Below, piece after piece: positions 34,006-53,381 of a DNA stretch of 64,000 bases (the stretch's first letter is position 1; every line of letters begins with the position of its first letter). The notes beneath the pieces are model-generated. The model did no database searches. It was not told where the DNA came from and worked only from the letters and a program-made list of their open reading frames with translations. This DNA comes from Fistulifera solaris. Its lineage: Eukaryota. The DNA lies in the NCBI GenBank assembly GCA_030295235.1, contig AP026164.1, forward strand, positions 868,001-932,000, given 5' to 3'. The position numbers and the translations under genes are program-made.

Positions 34006-34740
34006 CCTCGAACCGCGCCGTCGTTACAAGTAGTGCTTCAAAGTGAGCGAAACACTTTGTAAAACAGAAGTGAATCCTTTTTTCTATCTTGAAGGGGCTT
34101 CTTCAACGACAAGCAGTTCGTTTTTGTTTTGCAACCGACAACCGACAAAGGTTGTTGTGACGATGACGGTGTTGTTTCTCGGTTTTCTCACTTGGGCAGT
34201 CTATCATTTGAACCGGTACCCGATACACTGGTTGTAAAAGTACTGCGTACACGTCGAAGTAGGCGGAACACATTCCTTGTTCCACACTACCAGGGTAGCG
34301 CAGCCGACCAAGGTCAGGGTTTACAGCTAAGGCTGTTCATAATTTCCTAGCAAGTGCAAAGCTGGCCTTCGACCACAGAGTATAGGCTCACGAATCACGA
34401 ATAAAACGAAGCCCATAGTAGATCGAAAGAAGATCTACTGGATCGCCGCTCATTCGTTATTTCTTCTTCCGAATTAGAACTGGACAAAGAAAACCGAAAC
34501 GAGGAGTCAAGTTCATAGGCTTTTTTGTGCTGCAACTTAGCTACGATCCTGGCCTGATCCTGGATATGTTCCCCAAGGCGAACACGCTTTTATTTAATGA
34601 ACCTAGGAATGATTAATTATCATTTAACTGTCTTTTATTGACTACAGTCGTTATAGACGAATATATTTTGCGCGGATCGATCGAATAAACGAATAACATC
34701 GTGTCATGTAGCTTTATACGTCACACTGGCAATTGCAAAT

Positions 34741-35736
34741 TCACAACTTCATCCCAAAGAACGACATGCACTGCTCGAGAAAGTTCAAGCTGGGCTCTGA
34801 CTTGTTCTCCGCTTTACGATTTCCAAAAAGCGGCGACCGCAAAAATGCATCAGCGACCACAGTAAAGATTGTCGGCTGTTTCTGGCTCGGGATCTCTACA
34901 TGATTAGTTACAATTGGAACTTCGTTGAATATGTTTGCAACGTTCATTGTTGTTTCGAAATGCCGAAGCCACGTTCCGGCAATCTTGGAGATTTCCGCCA
35001 AAGCGTCGGCTGCCACAAATTCGGTTTTGTTACGTCTCATGTGCTTTTTCATGGCAGGCGTCAAAACAAAGTATGGAAAATCTCTTGTTGGTTTCTCCCA
35101 CTGACTAACTCCTGTTAGCGAGTTGTGATAGTAAACCATCTTTGATTTCTCGCCGTCAAAGTAAGCACTCCATTCGCCTTGTGAAGCAAGTGGTAACGAA
35201 AAGTCGTTTTCGTCTTCAACGAGATTGTTTTTTTCGGTGACTTTCATGCCGTCTTTTAAGTCGATTTTCGGAAATGACAACGTCGGTGGATCCCATTGGC
35301 TCTCTCCAGTAACTTCGTTGAAAAAGTAAATATACCCCGAGCCAAATTCGTCCCAATAAGCAGACCAGTCACCCTCGCTTGCCAATGCCCCGGGTTGAAA
35401 TGAAAACTTATCCCAAATATCCTCAAACGGCTTAATCTGGATGGAAGTTCCTTCCATGAAATTCGACAACCAACTGTCAGTAGTCAAAACAGATGGAGTG
35501 GCAGCGGCTTTAGCAGTCTTCTTTTTAGGGGCTTTCCTTTTCTCTATGACCGGTGACGCTTCCTTACCGTCCCTTTCTCGAGTCAGTCGCTGAATTCGTT
35601 TTAGAAAATCAACTTCCGTGGATGCCGAATAAGAGAGATGTTTCCACGCTCGGGCAGACCGGCCCGAATGATTTTGAAACGCCGCTGACGCAATACCGCA
35701 CGCTTGCACGATACATAGCCAATGAAGGGATCTCAT
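34741..35736 (-). CDS. Putative plastid-targeted protein with two WW domains
   Basis: Presequence MRSLHWLCIVQACGIASAA-F. Two W...Y(Y/F)xN..TG.SQW..P units. Confidence 0.8.
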   Translation of the reverse strand: MRSLHWLCIVQACGIASAAFQNHSGRSARAWKHLSYSASTEVDFLKRIQRLTRERDGKEASPVIEKRKAPKKKTAKAAATPSVLTTDSWLSNFMEGTSIQIKPFEDIWDKFSFQPGALASEGDWSAYWDEFGSGYIYFFNEVTGESQWDPPTLSFPKIDLKDGMKVTEKNNLVEDENDFSLPLASQGEWSAYFDGEKSKMVYYHNSLTGVSQWEKPTRDFPYFVLTPAMKKHMRRNKTEFVAADALAEISKIAGTWLRHFETTMNVANIFNEVPIVTNHVEIPSQKQPTIFTVVADAFLRSPLFGNRKAENKSEPSLNFLEQCMSFFGMKL

Positions 35737-36407
35737 TGCCGAAAAGTCTTGCACTGTATGCTTTGTGAAACGAGACCTTTGAACAAAGAGTAATTCAAGA
35801 AGGATTACAAGAGTGCAGCGTAAGGATACCAGGTATCTCCCATGACGAGAACGCAATCAACTGCAACAAAAGCGAAAAAAGGAATCATCACCGTGCGGCG
35901 ACTATAACGGAGAAACTAGGAGATATCGCGCTGTGACATTCTGCGGGTCCTGGACTTTTGAACTCGCGCCAGTGCTTTTAAGTACTCCAAATCTTGCTCT
36001 CCCCTGTTTAAATGTAAATAATACTACCAACTTAGTTGTGGAGCCGAGACCTAAATAATCTTGTCGAGAAAAAAATCATAGGAGCTAAATCGCCGGTCAG
36101 CCTGCAACTCTCACTCCAAGAGAACCTAAATCTGGAGAGGCTTTCTTTAGACAGACAGAACGCCTCACATCAACTCCTCCATTTGCGATTTGTGTTTGGC
36201 GTGTCCGCGAAACTTGATGCGCAATCTTTTCGCGAGCGCCACGGTTTATTCTCGGTCTTCTCGTCAAAAACAAAAAATATTTCGGAACGCATTCAAAGAC
36301 AAGATTTCTTTATTGCTACTTTCTACAATTCCATCTCGCGTTACGCAGAAAAAGTTACGGAGAGTATTGGCGCGCATCTACTTCACACCAGACAAGCTCA
36401 TTTGAAA

Positions 36408-37747
36408 ATGTATCGTTTCGTCTCCCTTGCTCTCTTCTTGATGCCTACGGCTGCGACGTTCATGCCGCAATTCCCAGTTTCTGATACGTCCTCTCGTTCT
36501 AGTAAAACCTATGCTTTATCGAGTGACGTGCAAAAGTGGGTGAGGAACGATAAAAAGACACCTGCATGGGACCCAGTGAAACTATGGGATGAGATTGTTT
36601 CAGCACCGGTTCGTCGGCACGTCGAGTACGGAACTCCTACCATTAGCTTGGGACGACAACAAAACACCCGCTCGAATGCTTTTGACGACCTCGTTTCGTC
36701 TATGAAAGACAGTATCAAAGAAGCAAACACCGCCTTTCGCCAGTTCATGAATGAATTCACATCGCAAAGGATGCCACGTCTCCTCAAGCGCTCGCACAGC
36801 AGGGCGATTGGGGAGCATTTGTGGACGAGGACGGAACCGGTCGTATTTACTACTTTAATGTCGTGACAGGAGAGAGTCGGTGGAATCCCCCTACATCAGA
36901 TTTTCCCATGGTGAACGAACCTCCTCGATTGCTCGTTTCCGAAGGATACTGGGGGGCCTACGTGGATGAGAAAAAGAAGTCGGTTTATTACTTTAACCGA
37001 AAAACAGGCCAAACGACTTGGAATCGACCGTATCCCTCCTTTCCCCGGGTTTCGGTGAATAGTCCGGCCCATACCGTCCAGAGACCTTTGGCCGTGAGTG
37101 GAGATTGGTCAGCTTATTTGGATAACAACAAGAATGTCTACTATTTCAACGACGTGACAGGAGAGAGTACATGGCAGCCTCCGTCGGGCTTCCCTACCGT
37201 GCAAGCTGCCCCCTTTGTCTCCGCATATCAACACGTATCCAAATGGCTTGAGGATGTTTTGGAGAAATTTTCATTTACCCTCGTTTCCGCGGACCAGGAC
37301 AAAGATATGGAATGGACAACCGAGTTGATATCAAAATTCGACCAACAATTTGACAAAGCAACAAGTAGTATTCGGGAATCCTGGAGCTTTCTTGATTACT
37401 TTGGTCGCTCTAAAACATTTTCGGCCAACGAATTTCCCATTGCGGCTATTGTGATAGACTTCGTGGATGAGCTTCTTGCTTCGGTACAGACCTATTTGCC
37501 TTTCCTAGATGCGTCTAGGAATAATCGACAAGATAATTTCATGCAAGTGGCAACCATTTACCCCGATCTGGAACATCTAACCCGATGGAAGCGCAATAGT
37601 GACGATACCATAACGGGATCTGTACGTCATTCCAACAAACATCCTGTCGGTACTGTAATTACAACAAGTCCAGCTGAGCGAGGAAGTACTATTGCCGAAC
37701 AAAAGGTAATTCGTACTTTGTCAGGAACCCGGTATTATCTTCTGTAA
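36408..37747 (+). CDS. Putative plastid-targeted protein with three WW domains and a C-terminal SANTA-like beta domain
   Basis: Presequence MYRFVSLALFLMPTAAT-F. A frameshift near 36780 joins it to ORF 36821. Three WW units; C-terminus LTRWKRNSDDTITGSV...ITTSP...RTLSGTRYYL. Confidence 0.8.
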
Positions 37748-37941
37748 GAGGAAACGTTCTTTGGATAGACCTTTGACTTTACCATATTTCACTCCATTCG
37801 ATGTGGATACAAGTTGATGTTCTGACGAGAAAAAAGACAATCACAAACAAGGTATTGTAACAACACTGAAGCATGTATAAGTTATTGACGTACAAACACT
37901 CATCTTTCGTCTACATACAAAAACATTTTGACCGTGGTTTC

Positions 37942-38674
37942 TCAAGGACTAGCTCCGTTCTTGAGCAAATCCAGCTTTCTGTAAACTTCATCGATTTTGG
38001 TCCCTTGTGGCATGGTAATTTCCTCGCCCAAGATAATTTGTAAGACACTTGCAGTCGTATCGTAAAACTTTTCGTTTTCAGCGCGCCGGTTGCCCATAAC
38101 AGCGCCTTCTAGTGTGAGACCTCCAAACAGGCCCTTTGTGAAAGCGATGCTTACAGTTCCTCCTACACCCTTGGTGCTGCAATTGATGCCGCCGTTGTAA
38201 GATCTGCCCCACTTTACAATCGAAATTTCCGCTTGGGCACCAATCTTCAGACTGTTGTTCACAGCGAGAGCCTCCAATGTCTGTTGGTCCATAATGAAGA
38301 GCATACTCTCTTTCATCGATCCCCCGATTGCGAAACCCCAGCCTGAATGAGAAACGCAAGCAGGTGAATCGTGTTTCATCCCAAAATTCTTCACAAGCTC
38401 TGGAAACGAAAGACTCACCAACTGCTGTCAAACCGATAGCGCAGGGAACTGACCACGAACCGTCTCGTCTTTTCGCCATGAAGATGCCGGATCCCAATTT
38501 TCCTGTGAACGTGAAGCCTGCTTCAATGGAAGATAACAAGATAACACCCTTGCAGTTCTCAAAAGATCTCTGGGAATGCCCCTCGTCTTGGGGGTCCAAT
38601 GCGCGATCTAGAACTTTATCCGCTCTCCAGATCATGCCTGGCATGGTTAAGCGACTAGGTGGTTTTTCGGGCAT
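37942..38674 (-). CDS. SYLF/Ysc84 actin- and lipid-binding domain protein (copy 1)
   Basis: CKGVILL, AGFTFTGKLGSG, WSVPCAI, GWGFAIGG, KGLFGGLTLEG and NEKFY. Intron 38418-38343; C-run frameshift near 38580. Confidence 0.88.
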
Positions 38675-39363
38675 CGTGTTTGCTCTTCTCCTTGAATAAT
38701 GATCAGCGCGGAAGAGCGAATGAATCCTCCTTTGCGTTGTGGAACTCGATAAATTTCCAATTTTTCTTCGGGGTTCGCAAACGGTTCGACATTTTGAGAC
38801 GAGGGTCACCAACTTCTGTAGAGCGAAACAATTATTCACCTGGTACCTGGTACCTAGAATACAGAATTTAAAGTCGCTCTCGCGATGGTAAAGTGCAACG
38901 CGGGTTAATATTTACTATTCTTTCGTCGGTACCATAAAACGGGTAATTTCCGTCGACACCAATACTTTCTACATCTATTCACACGTCTCAAGACAGTTGT
39001 GAAGTGAGTCAAAATTCAAAGCCATGAAAGCACAACGTGACGGGACTTGGTATTATTACAGGATTGTCAAGCATCCAGTCGGTGCTGCATTAACAAACTG
39101 TTCAGCCAGACAAGGAAGCAGTGTCTCTCACAATAAGATTTATTTAGGAACAGAGGTTCTTCGGGAATCAGCAAGCTCGCTGCTGCTGCCACTGCTCTGC
39201 AACGCCCTTTAGTCCTTGTTTCGCATTCAATATTGTGAACGCGACCAGCAGAGTCCATCAAGGTAAATCTAAACTTAATCTATGTTGGGTTCTTAAATTG
39301 ACATCTCAAACACTTTTATTTCTCATTCATTGTTTGACGAATAGAGAAAATGTTGCCTGACAA

Positions 39364-40106
39364 CTACGTTCTCTCGACGCTTCCCACGTTCTTGAGCACG
39401 TCCAATTTTCTGTACACTTCGTCGATCTTTGTACCTTGGGGCATGGCAACCTCTTCGTCCGTGACAATTTGCAAGACACTTGCATTCGTTCCATAGAAAT
39501 TTTCATTGACTGAGCGCCGGGCGCCTACCACGGCGCCTTCAAGTGTAAGGCCTCCAAACAAACCCTTTGAGAAGGCTAGACTAACAGTTCCTCCATAGCC
39601 GGATGGGCTACAATTTAAGGCAAGATTATAAGACCTTCCCCATTTGAAGAGCGTTAGCTCGGCCTGTGCACCAAGCTTTACACCGTTGTTTACAGCGAGG
39701 GCTTCCAAAGTTTGTTGGTCCATGATGAAGATCATGCTTTCTTTCAACGATGCTCCGATGACAAATCCCCCACCTGAGTTTGCAATATAACATGGTTAAT
39801 AAAGAGACACTTTCAGTTCACCAAATCGCAGTTCGAATTAGGGACTAACCTACTGATGTCAAACCGATGGCACTGGGAATCGACCACGAACCGTCCCTTT
39901 TCTTGACCAAGAATATGCCGGTTCCCAACTTTCCCGTAAACGTGAATCCTGCCTCAATAGACGAAAGTAAGATTACTCCTTTGCACTTGTCAAAAACGTC
40001 CTTTGGAATGCCTCTCTGTTTTGGATCCAAGGCGCGATCCAAGACTTTATCTGCTCTCCAGATCATGGACGTGCATGGACGTGCGAGGAGGAGGTTTTTC
40101 AGGCAT
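39364..40106 (-). CDS. SYLF/Ysc84 domain protein (copy 2)
   Basis: Closely similar to copy 1 (MPEKPP, IWRADKVLDRALDP, SKGLFGGLTLEG). Intron 39849-39774 at the same position; 1-nt frameshift near 40070. Confidence 0.88.
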
Positions 40107-40698
40107 TGTTTCTTTTCTGTGAAAGGAAGTTACCAATTGACCCTTTTGTTTTGAGCGCGATTTGATCTGGGCGTGGTTATTATTGAGTTCTCAAGTGCTT
40201 CGATCATTGGAGAAAAAAGAGTCGCCAAGAAGAGAAAGTTGCGATGATGCTTGTGCTTATTTTTTGAATTGCACGCTTCCTCGTCAAGTTTTCATAGTAC
40301 ATATAAGCGCTGGGCGACTAAGACATCATTATGGAAATCTGATGGAAACAGCATAACATAGGAGTTACGATCGGCATAAAAGCGACCGCCATTGTTCCGA
40401 AGGGGTGTGTTCTTACGCGGTGATGTTCACCTTGAAGCGAACACTATAGTCTGCATCATCGGGGCTGACTCTTCTCGGCTGACCCAGAGAGATCTTCGAA
40501 ATTACACGCTGATGCAATGCTTACCAAATTGTTTTACCGTGATAATAACAATAGCTTTCAACTGTATAGCAAGAGTGCTGGGCAATTGGCCTCGCACCCC
40601 CGTTTCTTGTCATTCCTTTGTGACATGACGTAACTTATGGATTTTAAAAAGAGTTCCTTTAAAAAGGAATGCTTAGTTCTTAGATGTTTCAGATGTTA

Positions 40699-41472
40699 CT
40701 ATCCCTCTCTATGCTCATCAGCTTTTTTACCTTTCTTGAGCATGTTTAGTTTCGTGTGGACGTCGTTTATCTTGGTTTCATCGGGCAAGGCCACTGCACC
40801 CGCAATGATTTCGAATCAACTTGCGCTACGGTTGTAGTAAGCTTCATTTACTGCTTTCTGGCTGCGTATTAAAGCGCCTTCAATGGTGATTCCTCCAAGG
40901 CAACCTTTCAAATAGGCGATACTCAGTGTTCTCCCAGCGGCAGAATTGCTAACATTCACTGAACCGCTCTAAGATCTACCGAAGTTTGCTAGAGTGAATT
41001 CGGCTTGTATTCCAAGCTTATGCCCAGCATCTTGAGCAAGAGCTGTCAAAGTTCCTTGGTCCATCAGAAAGATAACCATATCTTTGATCGATCCTCCACC
41101 AACAAATCCCCATCCTGCTTGTCGAGTTCAACAGTGAAAAAACGCGCATTCTTCAACCAAATGCATCAAGAACACAATTTTCAGAACGACGTACCAACCC
41201 CTGCTATTTCGAAAGCACTTAGACCTGTCAACGAGGCATCACTCCTTTTTGCAAGAAGAATGCCACTTCCAAAACTAATAGTTACAATGAATCCGGCTTC
41301 AATGATAGAAAGATTAAGTATTCCTTTGCATTGTTCACAGAGATCTTTTGGAAGGCCCATCCTGTCGGGATCTAACGCACACCGCAAAATCACATCCGCC
41401 TTTACAATCATGCTTTCCATGGTTGATCGGTCACGTGCTTCTTTGGCTATCTTCGGTCGCTTTGATTTTCAT
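40699..41472 (-). pseudogene. SYLF/Ysc84 domain copy 3, probable pseudogene
   Basis: Same intron position (41194-41115). Exon 2 is collinear with copies 1 and 2 but has in-frame TAG at 40971-40969 (GRSY to GRS*) and TGA at 40818-40816. The conserved W of DGSWS is lost. Confidence 0.75.
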
Positions 41473-42177
41473 GAAGTATACTTTGTACCGGAGTAGCAAT
41501 GTAGCTCGGTGACTCTTCATGCTTCCGATTAATAAGTGCTCAAGCTGAAAGTGTTTTCAAAACGATTTCGATCGAAGACCAAAAGCGTATCGCGGAGTTA
41601 AGACCAGATGAAGTGATTACGTTCTCGACGACTGAACATATCGGAATTCAAGAAAGTCAGCTCCCCGAGATATGTCAATGAAACGTCACTGCATTTTGAC
41701 CATTCTCAGGTTGAAGACGACCCAAAAGAAATCGTAACACAAGGAGACAAAAACAACATGAATGGAGGTATCGCTCACTATTGCCGTCATCTGCCATCAA
41801 GAAAGCGACACTGACTGCGTTATTGGCTACTGAAAGCAACCCATCACGACACCAAGCACAATCGAGGGCCCTTTCTACCCTGCAGGAGGCCCATTTGATC
41901 GTTGACCGGCGTTTGTTACATCCTCACAACCGAATTCGCTCACCGAAAGAATGCAAACAACTTTGACCAACGAGAGGAGTTTAGTAGTAGCATAGTTTCT
42001 TATCAACTTTCAACGTTTCACCTTTCGCCGTAAAGAATCAAGGCGTAAAATGGATCTGTACATGTTGCGACAAGTGCATCATGAAGGGAGCTGTTCGTGC
42101 TTTTGTTAAGCCAAAACAGATGTTGTATTTTTTTCCAATTACAAATACGTGGTAGTGTCTCACCAATAGTACAATTC

Positions 42178-42203
42178 GATTCATGACTGAATGCAGTCGT
42201 GGT
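42178..42203 (+). repeat. Dispersed stem-loop repeat copy
   Basis: GATTCATGACTGAATGCAGTCGTGGT is the reverse complement of the copies at 11247 and 54265, apart from a 1-nt loop deletion. Confidence 0.7.
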
Positions 42204-42378
42204 TACGATCATCCTGAGGACTGAGGAGTCCTCCTCGTCGAGTTTACGTTTTTACAGTTTATTAACTATATAGCGAATACAAGAAACTTAATTGTAAGTC
42301 TTAGTGGTCACGTACTAACAGCAAGAACAAGCGATTGACGATAGATAGAACACAAAAATTTACATCGAGATTATACAT

Positions 42379-45350
42379 CTACAGTAATTCGGACTTGAAA
42401 TCATGATGTTGAGGGGTGTCTTCCACTGCTTCAGGCTCGCGATGCAGATAGTCTGGAGTAAAGGGTTCTTTTCTCCTCAAAAGATTCGAGACAAGAGGTG
42501 CTACCGCAGATAAAACGCTTACCGAGGACCCTGCCTCACTAAATGATCTCGCTCCATAGCCTCCCGAAGAAACACTCCTGGACGCTGAAAACGAATGAGG
42601 GGCTACCGAGTACTGATTTCCACTTCCGCTTGTGGCGGACAAACTTTGGTCGTCGTTGTAAGGTGTTGTTAGTCCATTCGTAAAAGGCACAGTCTCAGAT
42701 CCGTATGAGTAAACAGTTCTTGCAGAGGGCGTGTTGGCATAGGACTGTCGATGGTCAAGCTTTGACGCAGAAATAGTAGGTTGCAACGAGGCTCTCCATT
42801 CGGTCTCTTTGGCAGCCTTCGTCAAAATCTGCCGTTGCTCAGTTGTCAAAAAGTCATTGCGAAATGTCAGCGTCAACGGTCGGCCGCGTGCCTGAATAGA
42901 TTTTCGTATGCTATCAAAAGTCCATCTTCCAACCTCAACCGATACTCCGTCAAATGCTACCAAACGCGCTCCGAGCTTTGGACGAGGGTTTGATCCAGAG
43001 TCATCGAATCCATCGAACCCACAAACAAGAACCGCATCAATTGGCGTGGCTACTGGGCATTGACCTACAGATTCATTGGGTTCTGTTTCATCGCTTTTCG
43101 AAAACGCAGCAACACGGCGCAACTCAGCTGCTGTCTTTTCACCGCCTTTTGCAACGCCAGAAAGATCTGCTGTAACCGCCGCCGTGAGAACACCCTTTGC
43201 TTTCAGTGGCGGGGGCGGAACCCTTTGGAACTGAAGACCGATGCGTCTGCTGTAGAAAGTAAGATGATACACCTGCAGTTCGTCAGTAGCAGAACCCACA
43301 ATTGCTCCGTCATCGGCTCTGCCTTTACGAAATCTCTCAGCAGCTGTCGTTACAACGTCCACCAGAGGACATGAAAGATTTGATGTTGCTTCTCCGTCGG
43401 TTATGTGCGAAGGAAAAGACCGCGTTGCATTTGAAGATGCGGTAAGATTATCATCAGCAAAACTGTCATCTTCGTCCTTATCTAGCAACTCGAGAGGATG
43501 ACGTCGCCTGGGTGATTGATTGAGCGAGTGACATGATCTGGACTTGGAAAGCTTCTCATTCAAGTATGGATTTTCGAAAGGTACATCCGATTCTCCTTCA
43601 TCGCCCGAGACTTCACCTTGCAAGGATGATTGGTCAGCATGATCGAGATCATTTTCTATGTTACTGTCTTCGGATGACTCGTCAAAAAGCGAAAGAAGAT
43701 TTTTTTGAAGCGGGCCACTCTGTGGCGTTTCTTGAGGAACAAGTTGTTCGAGGGAGAAGTCAAATGTGGTCACCTGTTTGATTTCGGAAGGTTTTTCCGA
43801 CGCTGTTATACTCTTCGTGATTGAGTTGGATGTCAAAAATTGTTCGTGCAGTCGAATGGAGGAAAGTAAATGCTCCTCCAGTTCATTTATTAACTTTTCC
43901 TCATCCTCAATTTCAGACGGATCGTCGTGCTGGGGTGCGTTCGCAGAGCGGGGGTCTTTACTCTCATTTTCAAGGGCTTTAGTCGCTTCTATCAGTACTT
44001 TCACTTCCCGCACAAGAACAGCCTTTTTCTTTCTTCTTTTGCTTGACTGATTTACGTAGTGTGCAGTTCTCTTCCCATAGTTTGCATAGGTGTTTCTCTG
44101 CTTTCGCCATTCTTTTCTCCATTTCGACGAGTCGCTCATTCGCGCCATTTAAATCCTCTACCGCGGTGGAAGCTTCTAAAGAAGCCAGGCGATGATGCTC
44201 TACCAATTGGTCACAAGCATTTCGCAGCGAAGTAAAGTGCTCTCCTGCTTCGTGGGAAAAATCGATTTCATTTCCGACATCTTCATCGAGCAATGATTGA
44301 TTTCTTTTGATGGACTCATCTTTGTCGACCACCACTGCCTTTAAAACACTTCCATCTTCCTTCTTTTCTTCGTCTAGGCCTTCCGTAGTTTCCACCATGT
44401 CTTTTCCTGTTTTACAAGTTCCCCCATTTTCGCCGCTCTCATTTTTTATTCCGTCGCTTTCTTTGAGGAGGCTCCTCCGCAGCTTCTCTGTCAGCATTTT
44501 CAACGATTCGTCCAGTTGATGAAAACGTTCTTTCCACATTGCAGCATCTTCCAAAGCACCATCTCGATCCTGCTCCACCAGTTTGAAGTCACGGAGCGCC
44601 GCTTCTAACTCTTTCACTCGACTTTGCAGTGCCGAATTATGACGTTTTTCCTTGGCCAGTGCCGCCTTGCAGACAGACAATCGTTCATGCTGCAATCCCT
44701 CTTTCCATTGCTCAGCCAAGTCCGATGATCGAGCTTCCAAAATAACCTTTCTTCCTCCCTTCCCAACATATCGAGAATCGGTTGGGGTCATTTTCCTCTG
44801 ACTCAATCCAAGATCCTTCTAAATCAAGACAACCCCGCGGCTCGGTATCGGTGGGGGCCAAAAAGTAATATAAAACAGTTCCCGGTTGTAACACGAAAAA
44901 TCTCCGTTTAAAAGCAGGTATATTCGTCCCTAGTTTTTGTAAATATCCAAAGAGTGGAGCATTCTGCTGTCGCGCCAAGGTGACGGCGCTTTGCGCCGAT
45001 GATTCGGAAGGCGGTGTTTGCCCAGGAGGTGGTGTTACGACGAAGCTATCCGGTGTTTCTATAGCGCGTCGTGGACGTATTCTGCTTGCTTTCGCTTGTC
45101 GTGAGTCTGTGCTGTCGATGGATTGCAGAGATGCCGAAGAAAAGGATGCAGCAATGTGCGGTCCATTCGTTGAATTTGCATTTAAATGCAGCCCCGATAC
45201 TTTCTGCGAATCTGGCACCATTCGATAAATTGCATTGCTGTTTGGAGTTTCCCACGATGAAGGTGGTGCATATCTTATTATCGAAGATGGTGTTTCTGTT
45301 GATTGTCGCTGTCTTTGTGTGTTTCGAGTCGAGGAGGACAAATGCGACAT
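42379..45350 (-). CDS. PH domain + coiled coil + C-terminal PDZ-like domain protein
   Basis: PH: GYLQKLG...FKRRFFVL...LYYF...PRGCLDL...LEARS...EQWKEGL. Long coiled coil. PDZ-like IGLQF...GARLVAFDG...RPLTLTFR. Three ORFs joined by frameshifts near 44760 and 44150. Confidence 0.75.
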
Positions 45351-45513
45351 GACAATTCTTCTTCAACAAAGAACAATTTTGAGCCTCTCTGAACACGAGA
45401 CCGTCGGCTGCGATCTTAAAGGATTTTTTGATATTGAAACGTGTCACTTGCGCGTCAATTCAAAGACAAAAGACGCCAAATGGTGCAAAAATCAAGACCT
45501 TTTTGACTTTAGC

Positions 45514-45529
45514 TACCAGGTACCTGGTA
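45514..45529. promoter_or_regulatory. 16-bp perfect palindrome TACCAGGTACCTGGTA in the divergent PH-gene/eRF3 gap
   Basis: Identical 16-mer at 49824-49839. The core TACCWGGTA recurs only outside coding sequence. Confidence 0.55.
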
Positions 45530-46031
45530 TCGTTGTTGCTGGGCGTTATTATTGCGTTCAAAGTCGTCGTCGAAGTTGCTGCGCGCGCAAGCCGACCGCC
45601 TTCAGTTTTGAAAACAAAAGTTGTCGCACCAATGTTGACTGTGTAGTAAACTGTAGACCAGCTTTTTCCAGACCATAACGACGACTCAAATACATTACAG
45701 TCACGGACGTGCTCTGTTCTCGTCCGATCTGATCGGGAAACTGACGGACAGCTGCTGTGGAGTGTGGAGGATCATCAATGGAAGGAGGACGGAGCAAACA
45801 AAGGAGTATAAACCACCGACGTGCGGCTGCAAAGACAGCAACGCTTCAGCTTTCCATTGCACTCCAGTTCATTCCATCCAAAGTCAAATTTCTCGCAAAC
45901 AAAGGGTTGAAGTGATTCTTCGTCAAATAGATTGTGTATTTGTCGAGGAACTTTTGATCTTAATTTGCAGAGACGTCGACGTATTGCTCATCAACTGGAC
46001 TGAAATAATTTGTAAACAAGTACGTGATAAA

Positions 46032-47753
46032 ATGAACCCCCAAGCAACTGAATGGAAACCTTCTGTTGCAGCAGCTCCCTGGACTCCAGGAGGCGGAGTA
46101 TCAGTACCCGCACCTACCCCGAATGCTGCGCCGGAACCAGAATCGAACGAAGACGAGATCGATGAACAAGATCCCCTCTGGCAAGCCGTTCTGAAGATCA
46201 GTGATGGTGACCGAGAGAAGGCCCTCAAACTCATCAACAATCCCGACGAGCTAGCTGCGTATCCCGAGATTCAAAAGATCTTGGAGGAGACTGGCGGAGA
46301 TGCCGCCGAAGATGAAGAAAGTGAACTTGTGCAAGACGTGGAGGAGAAGGCCAAGATCGAAGACTCGATGGAAGATGAGGCAGAATCAGAAGCACCCGCG
46401 AAGCCGGTCAAAGAAGGTGATCCACGCGAGCATTTGAACCTGGTCTTTATCGGGCATGTCGATGCTGGAAAATCCACCTTGTCGGGAAATATCCTTTACT
46501 TGACGGATAATGTGGACAAGCGCACAATCGAACGTTACGAACGCGAAGCCAAAGCTCTAAACCGAGATTCATGGTTTCTGGCTTTTATCATGGATACCGA
46601 CGAAGGTGAGCGAGCAAAAGGTAAAACGGTTGAAGTCGGAAAAGCTCGATTCGAAACCGAAAACAAGCGATACACCATCATGGATGCACCTGGACACAAG
46701 AACTACGTTCCCAACATGATTCAGGGAGCCAGTCAAGCTGACATCGGTATTTTGGTCATTTCGGCTCGAAAGGGTGAATTTGAAACAGGATTTGATAGGG
46801 GTGGTCAGACTCGTGAACATGCTTTGCTGGCAAAGACACTAGGCGTTGATTACCTCATCGTAGCTGTCAACAAAATGGACGAACCCACTGTGAAGTGGAG
46901 CAAAGAACGCTTTGAGGAATGTATTAGTAAAATCCGACCTTACTTGAAATCGTGCGGGTTCACGATCAAAACACAGGTCAAGTTCATTCCCATTTCCGGT
47001 TTAGGAGGAGCGAACGTCAAAGACGAAGTCTCGGAATCTGAATGCAGTTGGTGGAAAGAATTTTACACAACTGGTCAAAATAACACCGACCAGCCGACAC
47101 TTTTCAAGCTACTAGATTCGCTAATCATTCCCGGTAGAGATGCTACTGCTCCAGTTCGCATCCCCGTGTTGGATCGTTACAGTGAGCGTGGAACCATAGC
47201 CATGGGTAAAGTCGAGAGTGGTACTTTACGACCTGGTTCCAAGGTTACCGTTATGCCGACTGGGATGACATACAAAGTGGATGAAGTTTGGGTCAACGAT
47301 GATGAATCGATAGCAGCAGCGCGTCCCGGTGAGAGCGTCCTTGTCAAGTTGAATGGAGCTCGATTAGAAGATATTCGAAAGGGTTACGTTCTGTGTTCTG
47401 ATCCACCCTGTCGCGCAGTTGACAAACTTATCTGCCAGGTTGCCATTATGGATATGCCTGACAATACAAAGATTATGACGGCTGGTTTCCAATGCGTCTT
47501 TCACGCGCACACGTGCGAAGAAGAATGTACGATTACAAGGATTTTCGAAACAACGAATCCAAAGGGTCAGGTCATGAAGGGTGCTCGATTCGCGGGCATT
47601 GGCATGAGGGCTATTGTGATGATCGAATTGAGCCAAAGTACACCACTTGATACCTACGACAACATGCATTTCCTGGGAAGATTTACACTAAGAACCGAGG
47701 GTAAGACTATTGCAATCGGTAAGATCACAAAGCTGCCTCCACCGAGCGCCTAA
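46032..47753 (+). CDS. SUP35: Eukaryotic peptide chain release factor GTP-binding subunit eRF3
   Basis: NLVFIGHVDAGKST, ERAKGKTVEVG, DAPGHKNYVPNMIQGASQAD, NKMD and LGRFTLRTEGKTIAIGK. N-terminal PAM2-like MNPQATEWKP. Confidence 0.95.
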   Translation: MNPQATEWKPSVAAAPWTPGGGVSVPAPTPNAAPEPESNEDEIDEQDPLWQAVLKISDGDREKALKLINNPDELAAYPEIQKILEETGGDAAEDEESELVQDVEEKAKIEDSMEDEAESEAPAKPVKEGDPREHLNLVFIGHVDAGKSTLSGNILYLTDNVDKRTIERYEREAKALNRDSWFLAFIMDTDEGERAKGKTVEVGKARFETENKRYTIMDAPGHKNYVPNMIQGASQADIGILVISARKGEFETGFDRGGQTREHALLAKTLGVDYLIVAVNKMDEPTVKWSKERFEECISKIRPYLKSCGFTIKTQVKFIPISGLGGANVKDEVSESECSWWKEFYTTGQNNTDQPTLFKLLDSLIIPGRDATAPVRIPVLDRYSERGTIAMGKVESGTLRPGSKVTVMPTGMTYKVDEVWVNDDESIAAARPGESVLVKLNGARLEDIRKGYVLCSDPPCRAVDKLICQVAIMDMPDNTKIMTAGFQCVFHAHTCEEECTITRIFETTNPKGQVMKGARFAGIGMRAIVMIELSQSTPLDTYDNMHFLGRFTLRTEGKTIAIGKITKLPPPSA

Positions 47754-47852
47754 ATAAAAATGGATCATGATCTATCTATAAGAGTATGATTAAGTTGGTT
47801 AATTAAAACTTCAGTAGCAAAAGTCTACACAGGAATAAATGGCATTCAACAA

Positions 47853-49591
47853 CTATTTGCCACTGTAAAACATGCAAGTCTTCTTGCATTTCTTCAGACC
47901 ACAACCTTGACATGTTCCTGAAGATGATTTTGTGCTGAGCCGCTGCTTCTCACGTTGAATTTCTTCCTCCTTTTTCTTTTCGGCTGCCTCTTTAGCTGCG
48001 ATCAAATCCAGTTCACGTTGAGCATCCATAGCCTCCTTAAAACGTTTTCGCTCTTCTTCTTCTTTTTTGGCCTGTTCTTCTTCTTTCCTTTGCGCTTCTA
48101 GTCGCTCGGCTTCAATTCGTTTTTGCTCTGCTTCGACTCGTGCTTGTTCAGATTCCATAAGCTCCGCTTGTTGCGCAGAATCAGAGGTACTAGTCGTTGT
48201 GTTTGTAGTGACTGTCCTATCGCCATCTGTCTGAGTTTGAGCAGCGAGGGCATATGAGTCTCCCAGGGCCTTGGTTAAATTGGCTAACGCCTTGAGTGCT
48301 TCATCGCGGATTTCCTCAAATTGAACATTTGTCGCTACTTTTTTGAGTTCGGGAACCAATAAACTACCAAAAGGAGCAATCGACTCTGGTGAAATCACCA
48401 GTTTGGACATGTTGCTGATAACCAAACAAGCTTGTCGCTTGTGGATCGCCAATTTTTCTTTCAAGGCACGCGCAAGCACCGGACACAAAAGGGCAAGAGT
48501 ACTGGCATCGACAGGCACAACAAAAGTAGTCCCCATGAGCTCCGATACGGCCTTGTTCGTATCCGCCGGCTTGCAAATGGCGTTCACTATCGCCGGTATG
48601 GCGTTCTTGATATCCTGATTTGTGTTGGTATTACAAACAGCCAGAAGCGTCGACTTCGTAGCCTTCGCTACCTGGGGTTTGGTGTCAAAGACTTGATCGG
48701 TCAAGGCAGGAATAAGTTTCGGAATCAGCTTATAAACTTGATACGAAGCATTCACCTTCGCACACTGTTCTAATCGCTCCAGTGCAGTAGTTTTAACGCG
48801 CCATTCCGTAGACTTGAGCGATTGCAAGAGCAGAGGACAAAGGACAGCAGGAAAGGCCCAAGGGTGAGCCATTGATATAATGGCACTAGTAGCATCTTCG
48901 GCAGCTTGACGAACGGAACTAGAAGCACTACCGCACTCATCCAATGATGCCGCGAGAAACGCACCCACCACAAAGGGCTCGGCAAGTTTTCCGACAATCT
49001 CACAAAGAGCACGGATCACCAACAAGGAACCTTCTCTAGCATTTGCTGGAGTCGACTTTCCTCTTTTGAGTCTGTTCCGAGCGAGCCAGCAGTAGTTGCT
49101 TCTGTTTCCATACTAGCAAGACTCAGGGCTGACATGCTGGGCCTTAATCCACCCTCGACCGGGTCGCTCACATGATTGACAAACAGCTTATCAATCCCGT
49201 CTGGAAAGAGAGCCAATTGCATCTTTTCAATAATTTGACATTCCTTGAGAACAAATGCCACCCCCAATTCTTTGGCGGCCACGGCGACATCGGCAGCGGC
49301 GCCAGCTCTGTCTTTCGTGGTGCTAGCAGCATGCGGAGTCGAGATGTTTTTGACGATTGATTCTTCCCCCAAAGCTTTTTGAAAATGATCGAAAACGAAA
49401 CTCTTCTGTTCCTCTTTACTTTTTGAAAGCAAAGACGCGACAGTTTCGGGGGATGCGAGGGCCGATGGTTTCAAAGGCGGAGCCGAACCACGATGTCCCC
49501 CGACTGCCGCCGACGGCTTGCCTGTTGCGACCTTGGGAGGAGGCGCAGTCTTCTTGACAGAAATTTTTGTTGAAGCGTTGATCTCTACCAT
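47853..49591 (-). CDS. eEF3/New1-like HEAT-repeat protein lacking ABC domains, with coiled coil and Cys-cluster tail
   Basis: WRVKTTAL, LIPALTDQVFDTK, TTFVVPVDASTLALLCPVLARALKE and KRQACLVISNMSKLV...APFGSLLVPEL match the eEF3 N-terminal HEAT domain. Frameshift near 49060. Stop follows CQGCGLKKCKKTCMFYSGK. Confidence 0.8.
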
Positions 49592-49823
49592 ATTAACTTG
49601 GTTAAGTAATCGTCTATAATACCTGCAAGAACAATGCGAAGGGCTAACAATTAGTGTCGTTCTATTGTTGTTGGTGGTGTGCGTCTTTTTTCTTTTTCTT
49701 CCTCGTCACACATCTCGTCGCGAGATTAATTGGTCCAAAAGCCGTGCGGATTAAAAGGGGACTGAAATCAAGTCCCAGTTGTCGTCCGTCATTTTGATGC
49801 AGAAGACGACGACCTCACTCCTC

Positions 49824-49839
49824 TACCAGGTACCTGGTA
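49824..49839. promoter_or_regulatory. 16-bp perfect palindrome TACCAGGTACCTGGTA in the divergent eEF3-like/PP2C gap
   Basis: Identical to 45514-45529. Confidence 0.55.
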
Positions 49840-50148
49840 CTAGAGTGTATTAAACAAAAAGTAGACAACCCACGGCTCACACTGAATGTCTTTACGGTTA
49901 TAATTTACTAAGCAAAAACCGTCTCACGTCTCGCTGACGCCTTCTTGAACCGATGCCTCCTGGCTCGCAAAAGGACACCAACTCAATCCAAATCCCCCCC
50001 CCCCCCCACCCCGGCCTTCAAATTAAGTGTCACGGAACGAGATAACGCAACTTACGTCGCATTATCTTCGTTTCTCGCGAGAAGAGGTGTCTGCTGCTTT
50101 AGCTACAGTGTGAAGTGTGCTTCCGATCAACTATTGTTAATCTGCAAA

Positions 50149-51509
50149 ATGAAGCTCGTTCGTGAGTTCTTTCTGCTCAACGGGTTACTTCGATCGACGC
50201 TGGCGTTTGTACCCACCCCATCATGGTCTCATACTAGACGGCATTCTGTACTCTTATCTGAATCATTACAACCACTTGCCACGGAGGGAGACTGGACCGC
50301 CTTTTTAGACGAAGAGGGGACAGGTCTCGTTTATTACTTCAACAGCAAGACCGGTGATAGTTTATGGGAACCGCCGACAGATACATTTCCCACCGTTGTA
50401 TTAAAAGGAAGTATGCGGAGAAGGGCGAAAAATAAACAAGAAGAATACATAAAAGCCATTGCGCAACAAGAAGTACTGGAACCGAAAAAGGATTGTTCTC
50501 ATCTCTCCTCGAGGGAGATGAAGAAGTCGAACCGCCAACAGAAGAGCAATCAGAGAAGAAAAAAGAAGAGCCGGATTGGTTTAGCTTCATTTTTGAAGAG
50601 CGCCTCGCGAAACAAGCCATTGATGCGGAGATTGAACGAAAGTCGGGTGGATTTTTCAACAATATATTTGGATTGCGAACTACGGAAACAACGGAAAGTG
50701 CGCCTGTAGAAGTAACGAACAACAACCAAGCATCGACCGCTGTTATCGAGGAACCATTACCCAAGCAAACATCACTAGAAGTAAAGATGTCTGCCTTTAT
50801 CAAACCTCACCCCATGAAAATGTCATGGGGAGGTGAAGACGCTGTTTTCACTCAAGGTCGAACATTCGGGGTCTTTGATGGCGTTAGCGGTGCTGAAAAG
50901 AAAGACGGAATACCGCTGTACTCCAAAACAATGGCCGAGATAATGAAGGGGCGAGTTGGGGACACTGGAATTAGTGTGAATGATATCACGAAGCTAATGA
51001 CCGATGCTGCTAAAACTGCCGATCAGACATCCACCGGTGCGACAACGGCAATTGTAGGATCGATCGGCGAAGACGGCTTTCTCAGAGTTCTAAACGTTGG
51101 AGATTCTACATGTATTATTATAAGAGACGGTAAAGTCGTCGGGAAGTCCAAAGAAATAAGTCATTACTTTGAATGTCCATACCAGTTGTCCGCCGACTCG
51201 CCAGACCGACCGAAAGACGGAACCAAGTTCAATTTTGAATTGCTTCCCGGGGATATGATTCTAACAGCTTCCGACGGAGTATTCGACAACTTAGATCCCG
51301 AAAGTGTTGCAAATCTGGTCACGACGGGTCCGAAGACGCTTTCTAGCATAGCAAAGCGTGTCGTCGAGAAGTCTAGGAAAGTTTCACTCGACTCCAAGGC
51401 AGCTACTCCCTATTCCAAACTTGCGCAGAAATACGGCGATCCTGATTTTAAGAATGGACTCGGAGGCAAAGTAGACGACATTAGTTGTGTCGTAGTGAGC
51501 TACGGTTAG
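50149..51509 (+). CDS. Putative plastid-targeted WW domain + PP2C phosphatase (PTC7/PBCP type)
   Basis: Presequence MKLVREFFLLNGLLRSTLA-FVP. One WW domain. PP2C motifs GGEDA, GVFDGVSG, NVGDS, SHYFECPYQL, ASDGVFDNL and GGKVDDI. A-run frameshift near 50488. Confidence 0.88.
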
Positions 51510-51687
51510 TGTTCTGCCCGGACACACATTCTTCTCAGTAGTCTCTCATCGATTTCATTATTGCTACAAAGACACCTCGACGTGAGGCGTTGATTATTAA
51601 CTAATACTATTTTTTATCTAAATTACTCCTATATCTATATCGAAATATCAATAAAGTGAGTTGGTGAATAAGTGAGACACATCTTTA

Positions 51688-52936
51688 TCAGTCTTCTTCC
51701 ATGGGAACTTTATCACCTTCCCAAGTCTTCCATTCCATTCCTTTCGGTGCTGTTCGCTCTTTTCATAGTCTTTCTTGGAGACTTCGTCCCAGTTTGTCGA
51801 CAACACAGTTCCACCGGATGTCTGGTACGATTTTATCATTCTATACAATCAGTAATAAGAAAGTGAGTCATCTTTTGTGCGACATTTGTGCGTGCCCCTC
51901 CTGGATACTTACGCGCGTCGTGTATCTTCGTCGGCATTGGCGTAAATCTGTTGAAACAGTTTATTCATAGCATCATCCCCTTGTGGTGTTTTCTTTTTTC
52001 TTCTTCAGCTTGAATGGACTTCTCAATCGTTCCCCAGTCTTTTGGACTAGCGTAGGGCCGAACTTTGGGCTGGGTGGCTGACTTTGTAGTAGATGCTGTT
52101 CCCTTCTTCGATTCATTGCCCATGAGTTCCTTCCATTCGTATTCGTTTACTTTTCGTAGTTTCAGCAGTACCTTCTCTGGTTTGTATTGAATTTTGGATT
52201 CGGAAGGGTCGATTTCGTCATACAGTGGTCCTGCTATCAACTGAAACTCTTTTCCAGCCTTGACGATAGTAACATAGAGTCGTTGTCGTTCAAAATCGAC
52301 TTTTACGTGTTCTGAATTGAGGTTGGGCTCTAAAATGGAAATCGTCATGAATTTGTCGCTTTGATAATATTGGTAACGGGGAGCTGCCACGATAGCCGCT
52401 TTGGTAGCAGATCTAAGGCTCACAGGGGCCGATGTCGGGGCAGTTTGTGCTTTCAAGGGTTCGTCTGTGGTTGCAGGAGATGGTGCAATAGCTGGGGGAT
52501 TTAGCTTGGTGTCACATTTTTGGATCCAATCACGATATGATTTGCCGTCACGTTGATTCAAAGACGCCAATTGCGCTGCTGACTCAAAGGCTTGCTTTGC
52601 GTCCGCAAACTTATTGGCTTGAAAGGCCGCTAGACCCTGCCGCTTCCAGGCCACTTCACTTTCTCCGGGTCTCAATCCTGCGACAGATGAGGAAAGCAGT
52701 TGAGTCGCTTCATGCGCGTCTTCCTGGGCCGACTCATAATTTCCCAACTGATAAAAGCAATTTGATCGATGAGACAGAATGCGGAATTTTACAGCGGTGT
52801 TGGTGTGCCAGATGGTCAAGGCCGCCGTGTAAACCGTGAGCGCTTCGTCCCAGTTTTCATCCACGGCGTAAGAATCGGCCATGGCGAGGCATTCCTCCGC
52901 GGTCATGTCAGTCAACGGAAGTTCCGCTTCGCTCAT
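51688..52936 (-). CDS. SGT1: SGT1 co-chaperone (TPR-CS-SGS)
   Basis: TPR N-terminus, CS domain (RYQYYQS...KVLLKLRK) and SGS motif TRRAMIKSYQTSGGTVLSTNWDEV. Intron 51912-51841; homopolymer frameshifts near 51995 and 51760. Confidence 0.92.
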
Positions 52937-53381
52937 GTTCCCTAGCGTTAGATTATGCAAAGGTTTTTCAGAGAAGAGGAGTTGAATGCAACAAAGGACA
53001 TTTATTTTATGCTTCACCTTCACAGGGAGGGGGGGGAATTAAAAAATCGTCGTGTCCGTGTTGCACAAACTATTAAAGGAATAGTACCAGGTACCAGTCC
53101 CGGTACCGGTACCAGTTAACATGGCCTAAACCCTAAACCTAAACTGTTCGTTCCTACCGATGCGTGCTGCACACTTTTCGCACTTTTTTGCATCGTTTTT
53201 CGTGTGCCATGCGTTTACCAGGTACTGGTAGCGTTTGCCGTCATTTTTTCATCACGATGCTGTCGTCCGACGACGAAACAATACACATACAAACGAGATA
53301 AACCACCTATCCATCATTATTTCTTATCATCACTGTGCGTTCTTTTTTTTCTTAGAAAGAGAAAATACCGAAACCGCACTC

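Follow-up and report, generated by a model that had tools for sequence, protein, structure and literature searches.

A WW-PP2C7 fusion conserved in diatoms as a candidate plastid phosphatase, and the multi-WW genes that share its unit in Fistulifera solaris

WW domains are mainly cytosolic or nuclear, and the known group II/III domains (FBP11/PRPF40A, FBP21/WBP4 and FBP28/TCERG1) occur in nuclear splicing factors. The plastid-targeted phosphatase PBCP (At2g30170; rice structure 6ae9) belongs to the PP2C7 class and carries no WW module. In Kerk et al. 2015 (PMC4524716), the main text names WW once among the rare PP2C7 accessory domains, and supplementary Table I lists the Thalassiosira pseudonana protein TpB8C6M9 with a WW domain, from a gene model without a signal peptide and with a final prediction of cytosol over mitochondrion. 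Here, a window of 64,000 nucleotides from F. solaris (GenBank assembly GCA_030295235.1, contig AP026164.1, positions 868,001 to 932,000, forward strand) is analyzed, in which three presequence-bearing genes share one extended WW unit; genes 1 and 2 are non-catalytic, and gene 3 is a WW-PP2C7 fusion whose T. pseudonana orthologue is TpB8C6M9. In the sections covered, Kerk et al. did not recognize that protein as plastidic, as diatom-wide or as sharing its unit with non-catalytic proteins.

The feature is real and conserved and, as far as the searches reach, unstudied. In particular, the original prediction, which was made from this sequence alone, knew of no earlier description; none of a plastid WW system was found in the literature searched (most subscription journals lie outside its coverage), but the fusion itself was already present in the supplement of Kerk et al. 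What is new is a distinctive WW module on a PP2C7 of predicted plastid location; the module has also seeded non-catalytic and DnaJ offshoots. The favored interpretation, with a probability of roughly 0.5, is that gene 3 encodes a plastid-stroma PP2C7 of diatoms and Parmales whose WW module docks, independently of phosphate, on a proline-rich plastid partner.

The fusion gene and its reading frame

The features of the three genes are as follows, in window coordinates.

34741..35736, minus strand: gene 1, 331 amino acids (aa), non-catalytic; bipartite-type presequence, two extended WW units (P0121; homoeologue FisN_5Hh400)
35680..35736, minus strand: gene 1 predicted signal peptide (19 aa), then Phe; transit score 4.56
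35263..35394, minus strand: gene 1 WW unit 1
35068..35199, minus strand: gene 1 WW unit 2, then FP and a basic, probably helical stretch
35737..36407, no strand: head-to-head intergenic region of genes 1 and 2, 671 bp, possibly a shared promoter
36408..37747, plus strand: gene 2, 446 aa, non-catalytic; presequence, three extended WW units (P0143 = FisN_5Lh401)
36408..36458, plus strand: gene 2 predicted signal peptide (17 aa), then Phe; transit score 5.26
36782..36913, plus strand: gene 2 WW unit 1
36923..37051, plus strand: gene 2 WW unit 2
37079..37204, plus strand: gene 2 WW unit 3
50149..51509, plus strand: gene 3, 453-aa WW-PP2C7 fusion (P0131 = FisN_5Lh408)
50149..50205, plus strand: gene 3 predicted signal peptide (19 aa), then Phe; transit score 5.53
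50266..50397, plus strand: gene 3 WW unit
50266..50478, plus strand: gene 3 extended WW module, modelled with confidence over residues 40-110 and comprising an extra strand, the WW, FPxVxL and a helix
50781..51506, plus strand: gene 3 PP2C7 (PTC7/PBCP-class) phosphatase domain, metal-binding aspartates intact

The start codons lie at 35736, 36408 and 50149, about 13 kb separate gene 2 from gene 3, and the window covers every residue of P0121, P0143 and P0131. The second subgenome (contig C3) has all three genes in unchanged order.

The fusion is widespread. Among the best 120 of 383 matches to the catalytic frame, 108 have a WW unit near the N-terminus, while the other 12, judged by eye, begin downstream of the unit. 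Members occur in raphid pennate and centric diatoms and, among the Parmales, in Triparma columacea, and named ones come from Fistulifera, Nitzschia, Seminavis, Cylindrotheca, Skeletonema, Thalassiosira, Helicotheca and Triparma. A profile search against 50% representatives (best 150 of 6861) separates a near full-length family at about 350-670 bits from other PP2C7s at no more than about 193 bits. When 116 catalytic domains were placed in a quick tree, the family formed one clade of 64 rows, with a Shimodaira-Hasegawa-like approximate likelihood ratio (SH-aLRT) support of 99; 50 of these rows have a WW unit, and the remaining 14 are mostly truncated, with up to four possibly lacking it.

The catalytic domain is a PP2C7. 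Its closest similarity is to PP2C7 members, Pfam PP2C is detected in gene 3, and the aspartates of motifs 1, 2, 5, 8 and 11 that define PP2C7/PTC7 (PMC4524716, in the sections covered) are found in the family, the metal-binding aspartates being kept in 147-150 of 150 aligned proteins. Searches of the F. solaris genome, which give lower bounds, found at least one copy of the phosphatase per subgenome and only one other PP2C7, a CBS-PP2C7 fusion whose N-terminus looks mitochondrial by eye (L145:483-1334 and downstream; G000 C31, with a copy on C30). A Phaeodactylum tricornutum PTC7 homologue, Phatr3_J46903, is itself phosphorylated, and the peptide is near-identical in CBS-PP2C7 (PMC7408324, from the part of its supplement covered).

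The frame breaks once each in genes 2 and 3, in this assembly only. An extra A is present at 50484 (gene 3) in all four sequencing runs compared and at 36765 (gene 2) in the evenly covered, DNA-like run X1; moreover, gene 3 equals P0131 over its first 114 and last 340 of 453 residues and differs only at the frame break. The two frameshifts are one-base assembly errors, and a pseudogene or split-gene reading was dropped for that reason. Across positions 34400-51800 of the window, the assembly shows at least 12 one-base differences from short-read contigs, several within reading frames, so gene models built from it will show false frameshifts.

Short-read contigs have no joints, as introns would leave, inside genes 1-3. 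RNA-like contigs of run X2 tile gene 3 (50082-50411, 50382-50792, 50814-51160 and 51024-51381) with no joint within, where RNA status is a tool's guess and none of the runs is recorded as RNA; further, transcriptome-derived orthologues (MMETSP names) hold WW and PP2C in one frame. The two parts thus share a single reading frame, as first proposed, rather than belonging to separate transcripts. Gene 1 has low cover in runs X2 and X3, and the zero cover of gene 2 in three RNA-like runs counts neither for nor against its expression.

The extended WW unit

The six copies seen originally in three genes were all located, two in gene 1, three in gene 2 and one in gene 3, and they share 13 invariant columns, including L4, G8, W10, A12, D15, F41 and P42. 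The unit has the marks of a WW domain (two Trp, an aromatic strand 2, W-x-x-P and a three-stranded fold); Pfam WW (PF00397) clears its cut-off in gene 1 and gene 2, whereas in gene 3 it scores 26.3 bits, short of the 26.9 required. It also extends beyond the WW core, by FPxVxL and then a helix. An FP directly after the WW is found in 6 of 6 window units versus none of 21 other distinct WW cores of the F. solaris genome (part of its 85 Pfam WW matches), and for database units the counts are 191 of 201 where the unit belongs to a phosphatase, 53 of 61 where the protein is non-catalytic and 2 of 29 for weaker matches to generic WW domains. The AlphaFold2 model of gene 3 places residues 41-110 in one block with a predicted local distance difference test (pLDDT) score of 89-97, in which the WW sheet is joined by an additional strand and by a helix that spans 87-110. 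A conserved Ala at W+2 may let FPxVxL pack onto the back of the sheet. The linker falls largely below a pLDDT of 50, and a predicted template-modelling score of 0.59 suggests that the WW module and the catalytic domain have no fixed mutual orientation.

The scores from the structure searches are low, which is normal for a domain of this size. Among WW domains, FBP11 WW1 in complex with PPLP matches best (root-mean-square deviation 1.6 across 30 residues; Z 2.7, a value shared with unrelated rows), and searches with the module returned only WW domains and chance-level matches (none with Z of at least 5 or E below 0.001), with no solved WW-plus-helix relative seen among them, which does not show a new fold. 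A feature search of the Atlas with the module gave no usable match, and a homodimer prediction of the module, with no alignment used, scored 0.09, which speaks neither for nor against a homodimer.

The units have a common origin. In a unit tree of 45 columns, 65 of 66 fall in one clade (SH-aLRT 92, with two long-branch generic WW domains inside) and do not group with generic WW domains, which bears out the original view of one shared module. The WW domains of diatom TH1 (NELF-C/D-like) proteins lie just outside this clade and are the closest other WW domains in the genome (41 bits, with DWSAY in common), making TH1 a possible donor or sister of the unit; unlike the unit, they have no FP tail, and SignalP is negative for Thaps3a_22716, which by eye appears to be the T. 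pseudonana homologue. The TH1 protein itself has two N-terminal WW domains (L014:1-1641; G000 C2, with a copy on C1). Elsewhere in the genome, a large protein has more than 10 generic WW repeats in acidic linkers, with no presequence seen (G000 C23:541420-544924 and C24:539603-543131).

The residue pattern bears on the ligand. Positions were assigned to the group I His pocket, the XP and XP2 grooves and the Pin1 loop-1 pocket according to the roles that we take these residues to have. Across the 201 phosphatase units, the XP-groove Tyr is present in 200, the XP2 positions are aromatic (Phe in 199) with the third strand-2 aromatic in all 201, and W+3 is Tyr or Phe in 189. By this pattern, the unit has the paired XP and XP2 aromatic grooves of groups II/III, for which the XP2 groove is the group mark (PMC2777906, in the part covered). 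The group I (PPxY) pattern is absent, as the four commonest residues at the His position are Gly, Ser, Thr and Ala. The WW core carries a mean net charge of -5.7. Overall, these residues suggest a phosphate-independent binder of proline-rich, probably basic motifs. The best sequence matches (PRP40, WBP4 and TCERG1) likewise come from the group II/III domains, which share the three strand-2 aromatics and the Tyr at W+3; by contrast, the diatom unit adds an N-terminal strand, a longer acidic loop 1, the FPxVxL tail and the helix, and is found in presequence-bearing proteins.

The original prediction also allowed for phospho-Ser/Thr-Pro binding. In a Pin1-like model, the WW would read phosphorylated sites and hand those substrates to the catalytic domain. 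Its fusion to a phosphatase would suit such a role, and Pin1 WW chains are among the sequence matches (E ~1e-6), but these matches are confined to profile positions 16-38, so that strand 1 and the greater part of loop 1 are not covered. The Pin1 phosphate pocket requires Arg and Ser in loop 1. In the diatom units, loop 1 has a net charge of -2.65 and W+3 is Tyr or Phe, so that the group IV (Pin1) phosphate-pocket pattern is absent; because loop 1 is acidic and starts with Arg in none of 201 units, phospho-Ser/Thr-Pro reading by the unit is unlikely, and the Pin1-like model as a whole is highly improbable.

Predicted location and the relation to PBCP

A plastid location is predicted for the WW-PP2C7 family, in line with the original reading of the presequences. 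Presequences were recognized by a heuristic (a hydrophobic stretch, small residues at -3 and -1, and an aromatic residue or Leu at +1), for which the family set comprised Met-starting proteins with the unit starting at residue 35-95, near-duplicates included. All three window genes are positive, as are 135 of 159 family proteins (103 with Phe) versus 14% of shuffled N-termini, 4 of 49 other PP2C7s and 1 of 11 generic WW proteins; non-catalytic multi-unit proteins are positive in 12 of 26 cases (9% in shuffles). Under the ASAFind criterion (Phe, Trp, Tyr or Leu at +1 and a transit score above 2), scores from the published matrix exceed 2 for all three genes, with a scoring script that reproduced two published ASAFind scores, and 17 of 20 hand-picked proteins, scored from the first Met, have Phe at the best site. 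Further, in the part of Gruber et al. 2015 (PMC4329603) covered, the P. tricornutum orthologue of gene 3 (Phatr2a_19462) is called plastid with high confidence, the T. pseudonana orthologue (Thaps3a_263365, UniProt B8C6M9) plastid with low confidence, and a T. pseudonana WW3-DnaJ protein (Thaps3a_23387) plastid with high confidence; both orthologues of gene 3 are SignalP positive.

The protein could instead reside in the periplastid compartment, the endoplasmic reticulum or the cytosol, where ordinary WW partners occur and where WW domains are mainly found. Kerk et al. 2015, in the supplementary table, predicted cytosol over mitochondrion for the T. pseudonana protein, but from the gene model that lacks a signal peptide, whereas Phe at +1 and a Ser/Thr-rich, acid-poor transit region are conserved family-wide, and this pattern is the published mark of stroma import (PMC4329603, in the part covered). 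A location outside the plastid is quite unlikely.

Gene 3 was originally called a PBCP/PTC7-type phosphatase; the PP2C7 class and the fold hold, while PBCP orthology does not emerge. As a diatom counterpart of PBCP, the enzyme would dephosphorylate the N-termini of photosystem II core or antenna proteins at the thylakoid, with the WW module as an anchoring add-on. The two share the PP2C7 class, the fold, the catalytic aspartates and plastid targeting (predicted for gene 3); among solved structures, rice PBCP (6ae9) ranks first in both sequence (E 1.3e-33) and fold (template-modelling score 0.83 by target), but it is the sole close PP2C7 match in the PDB search, so that "best" says little. Gene 3 is also the only PP2C7 with a plastid-type presequence found in the genome, and a chloroplast-predicted PP2C, B7FW72, is raised in diatom cpftsy mutants (PMC10269134, in the part covered), although it could not be matched to the WW-PP2C7 family. 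In a careful tree of 41 hand-picked rows, however, the family (100/99) is separate from a PBCP-like group anchored on the grass "PP2C 1" cluster, and the rows closest to it are a pair of unnamed proteins on long branches, one of which begins with a signal followed by Phe. Constraining the family and PBCP into one clade costs 18.9 log-likelihood units, which the approximately unbiased (AU) test does not reject (p 0.065). Motif 2 reads DGVSGA in the family versus DGVSGW in the PBCP group, and the STT7/STN7 kinases and state transitions are reported absent in diatoms (PMC10089185, in the part covered). A shared clade with other DGVSGA-type PP2C7s (P0304, P0339, P0319 and P0340) is neither established nor rejected (p 0.17); these four have no WW, and P0339 has a signal-plus-Phe N-terminus. 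Overall, gene 3 works like a PP2C7 and may fill PBCP's place, its orthology to PBCP not being supported by the best tree, and a true PBCP counterpart is unlikely.

Non-catalytic relatives, mechanism and meaning

Genes 1 and 2 are lineage-restricted multi-WW offshoots, which lie head-to-head as first described. Between homoeologues, the ratio of nonsynonymous to synonymous substitution rates (dN/dS) is 0.16 and 0.19 overall, with dS at about 0.37, and 0.02, 0.11 and 0.02 in the WW units of genes 1, 2 and 3; genes 1 and 2 are under purifying selection. Searches with the unit profile (best 120 of 185 matches, plus a 50%-representatives search) returned multi-unit non-catalytic proteins, phosphatases in which the unit occurs two or three times, and a group of WW3-DnaJ proteins, among them named ones from centric diatoms. 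The WW3-DnaJ proteins of centric diatoms derive from the same unit (P0149, P0151, P0156-P0158 and P0342), and the T. pseudonana member is predicted plastidic and has long internal repeats. P0152, labelled Alexandrium, was not counted as a dinoflagellate member, its N-terminus being identical to that of the T. pseudonana WW-DnaJ.

The first units of P0141, P0142, P0296, P0300 and P0153 keep the phosphatase-type FP-helix tail, most with a TGLVYY loop, and this phosphatase-type first unit with its helix in several non-catalytic proteins supports the view that they derive from the 5' half of the phosphatase gene. In the unit tree, the second unit of gene 1 clusters with units from three proteins of other organisms (P0127, P0296 and P0142), and the DNA identity among units is 51-65%, so the duplications are old. 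Such age would also suit a reading in which the phosphatase docks as in the favored interpretation, but genes 1 and 2 are independent offshoots that have separate partners and are not linked to it by regulation, their proximity reflecting local duplication. The comparison of non-catalytic families with phosphatases found no similarity outside the WW units, and a conserved three-gene cluster was set aside after a separate second unit-bearing gene was found in none of 80 metagenome phosphatase loci, a weak test (only 14 loci exceed 10 kb, and flanks reach at most 10 kb versus the ~13 kb gap here); 2 of the 80 have a doubled WW inside the phosphatase. On the other hand, ligand-face residues are kept under strong purifying selection, non-catalytic proteins of several unrelated architectures usually each have a presequence, and in two relatives the non-catalytic protein and the phosphatase are each listed with an equal longest-contig size (7067 and 52001), an indirect hint of kept linkage. 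Independent offshoots are a serious prospect, somewhat short of an even chance, and a regulatory link of genes 1 and 2 to the phosphatase has about even odds.

The genes lying between and around these show other features. At 37942-41468 (minus strand), between genes 2 and 3, are three tandem Ysc84/SYLF-domain paralogues, with 72% and 47% identity to the middle copy. The neighbors of gene 3 at 45657-53038 are an eRF3/EF1A-type translation GTPase, an EF3/GCN1-type HEAT protein and a TPR-CS protein, for which no link to the WW genes was seen.

Under the docking model, import would leave the extended WW module as the mature N-terminus of the gene 3 protein, on a long flexible linker. The module may then dock, with no need of phosphate, on a proline-rich, probably basic motif of a plastid partner, either a substrate or a scaffold, which would bring the catalytic domain close to the phosphoproteins that it acts on. 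Genes 1 and 2 may have arisen when the 5' half of the phosphatase gene (presequence and module) was duplicated, the catalytic domain lost and the unit repeated internally; their products probably bind the same class of motif, with more than one unit engaged at a time. They could thereby gather the partner into clusters or rival the phosphatase for binding; the adaptor and decoy roles first proposed are putative.

Several observations weigh against this model. No candidate ligand was identified for the WW module. Several phosphatase orthologues lack the helix (its motif is found in 110 of 150), and a few members of the phosphatase clade (up to four of 64) may have no WW. Any Phe at +1 clears the transit cut-off of 2, so the score alone discriminates little, and the strict heuristic is passed by only 12 of the 26 non-catalytic proteins, several of which have uncertain starts. 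Moreover, the non-catalytic genes are patchy, gene 1 having 8 matches within its length range, and the metagenome loci show no linkage.

A broader proposal is that a host nuclear-type WW was recruited into the secondary plastid of diatoms and Parmales, and that the phosphatase, the centric WW3-DnaJ proteins and multi-WW decoys or scaffolds, repeatedly spun off the phosphatase gene, form a docking network. Its members would all bind a single proline-rich target in the plastid, such as a protein of the thylakoid or the pyrenoid, and would provide phospho-regulation without the STN7/state-transition system; this extension is doubtful. The term "WW domain" does not occur in the main text of a diatom pyrenoid preprint, and no expression rows were found for Phatr2 19462.

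Diel phosphorylation of the diatom chloroplast enzymes PGK, GAPC and PPDK has been described (PMC7408324, in the part covered), and no characterized plastid phosphatase of diatoms was found in the literature searched. WW-PP2C7 is a conserved candidate for such a phosphatase, with named orthologues in both model diatoms (Phatr2 19462; Thaps3 263365, UniProt B8C6M9), so that knockout and WW pull-down are directly possible. If true, a WW docking module within the plastid would show clearly how, following secondary endosymbiosis, an organelle enzyme can acquire a signalling domain of the host, and it points to an unstudied route for steering protein dephosphorylation in diatom chloroplasts.

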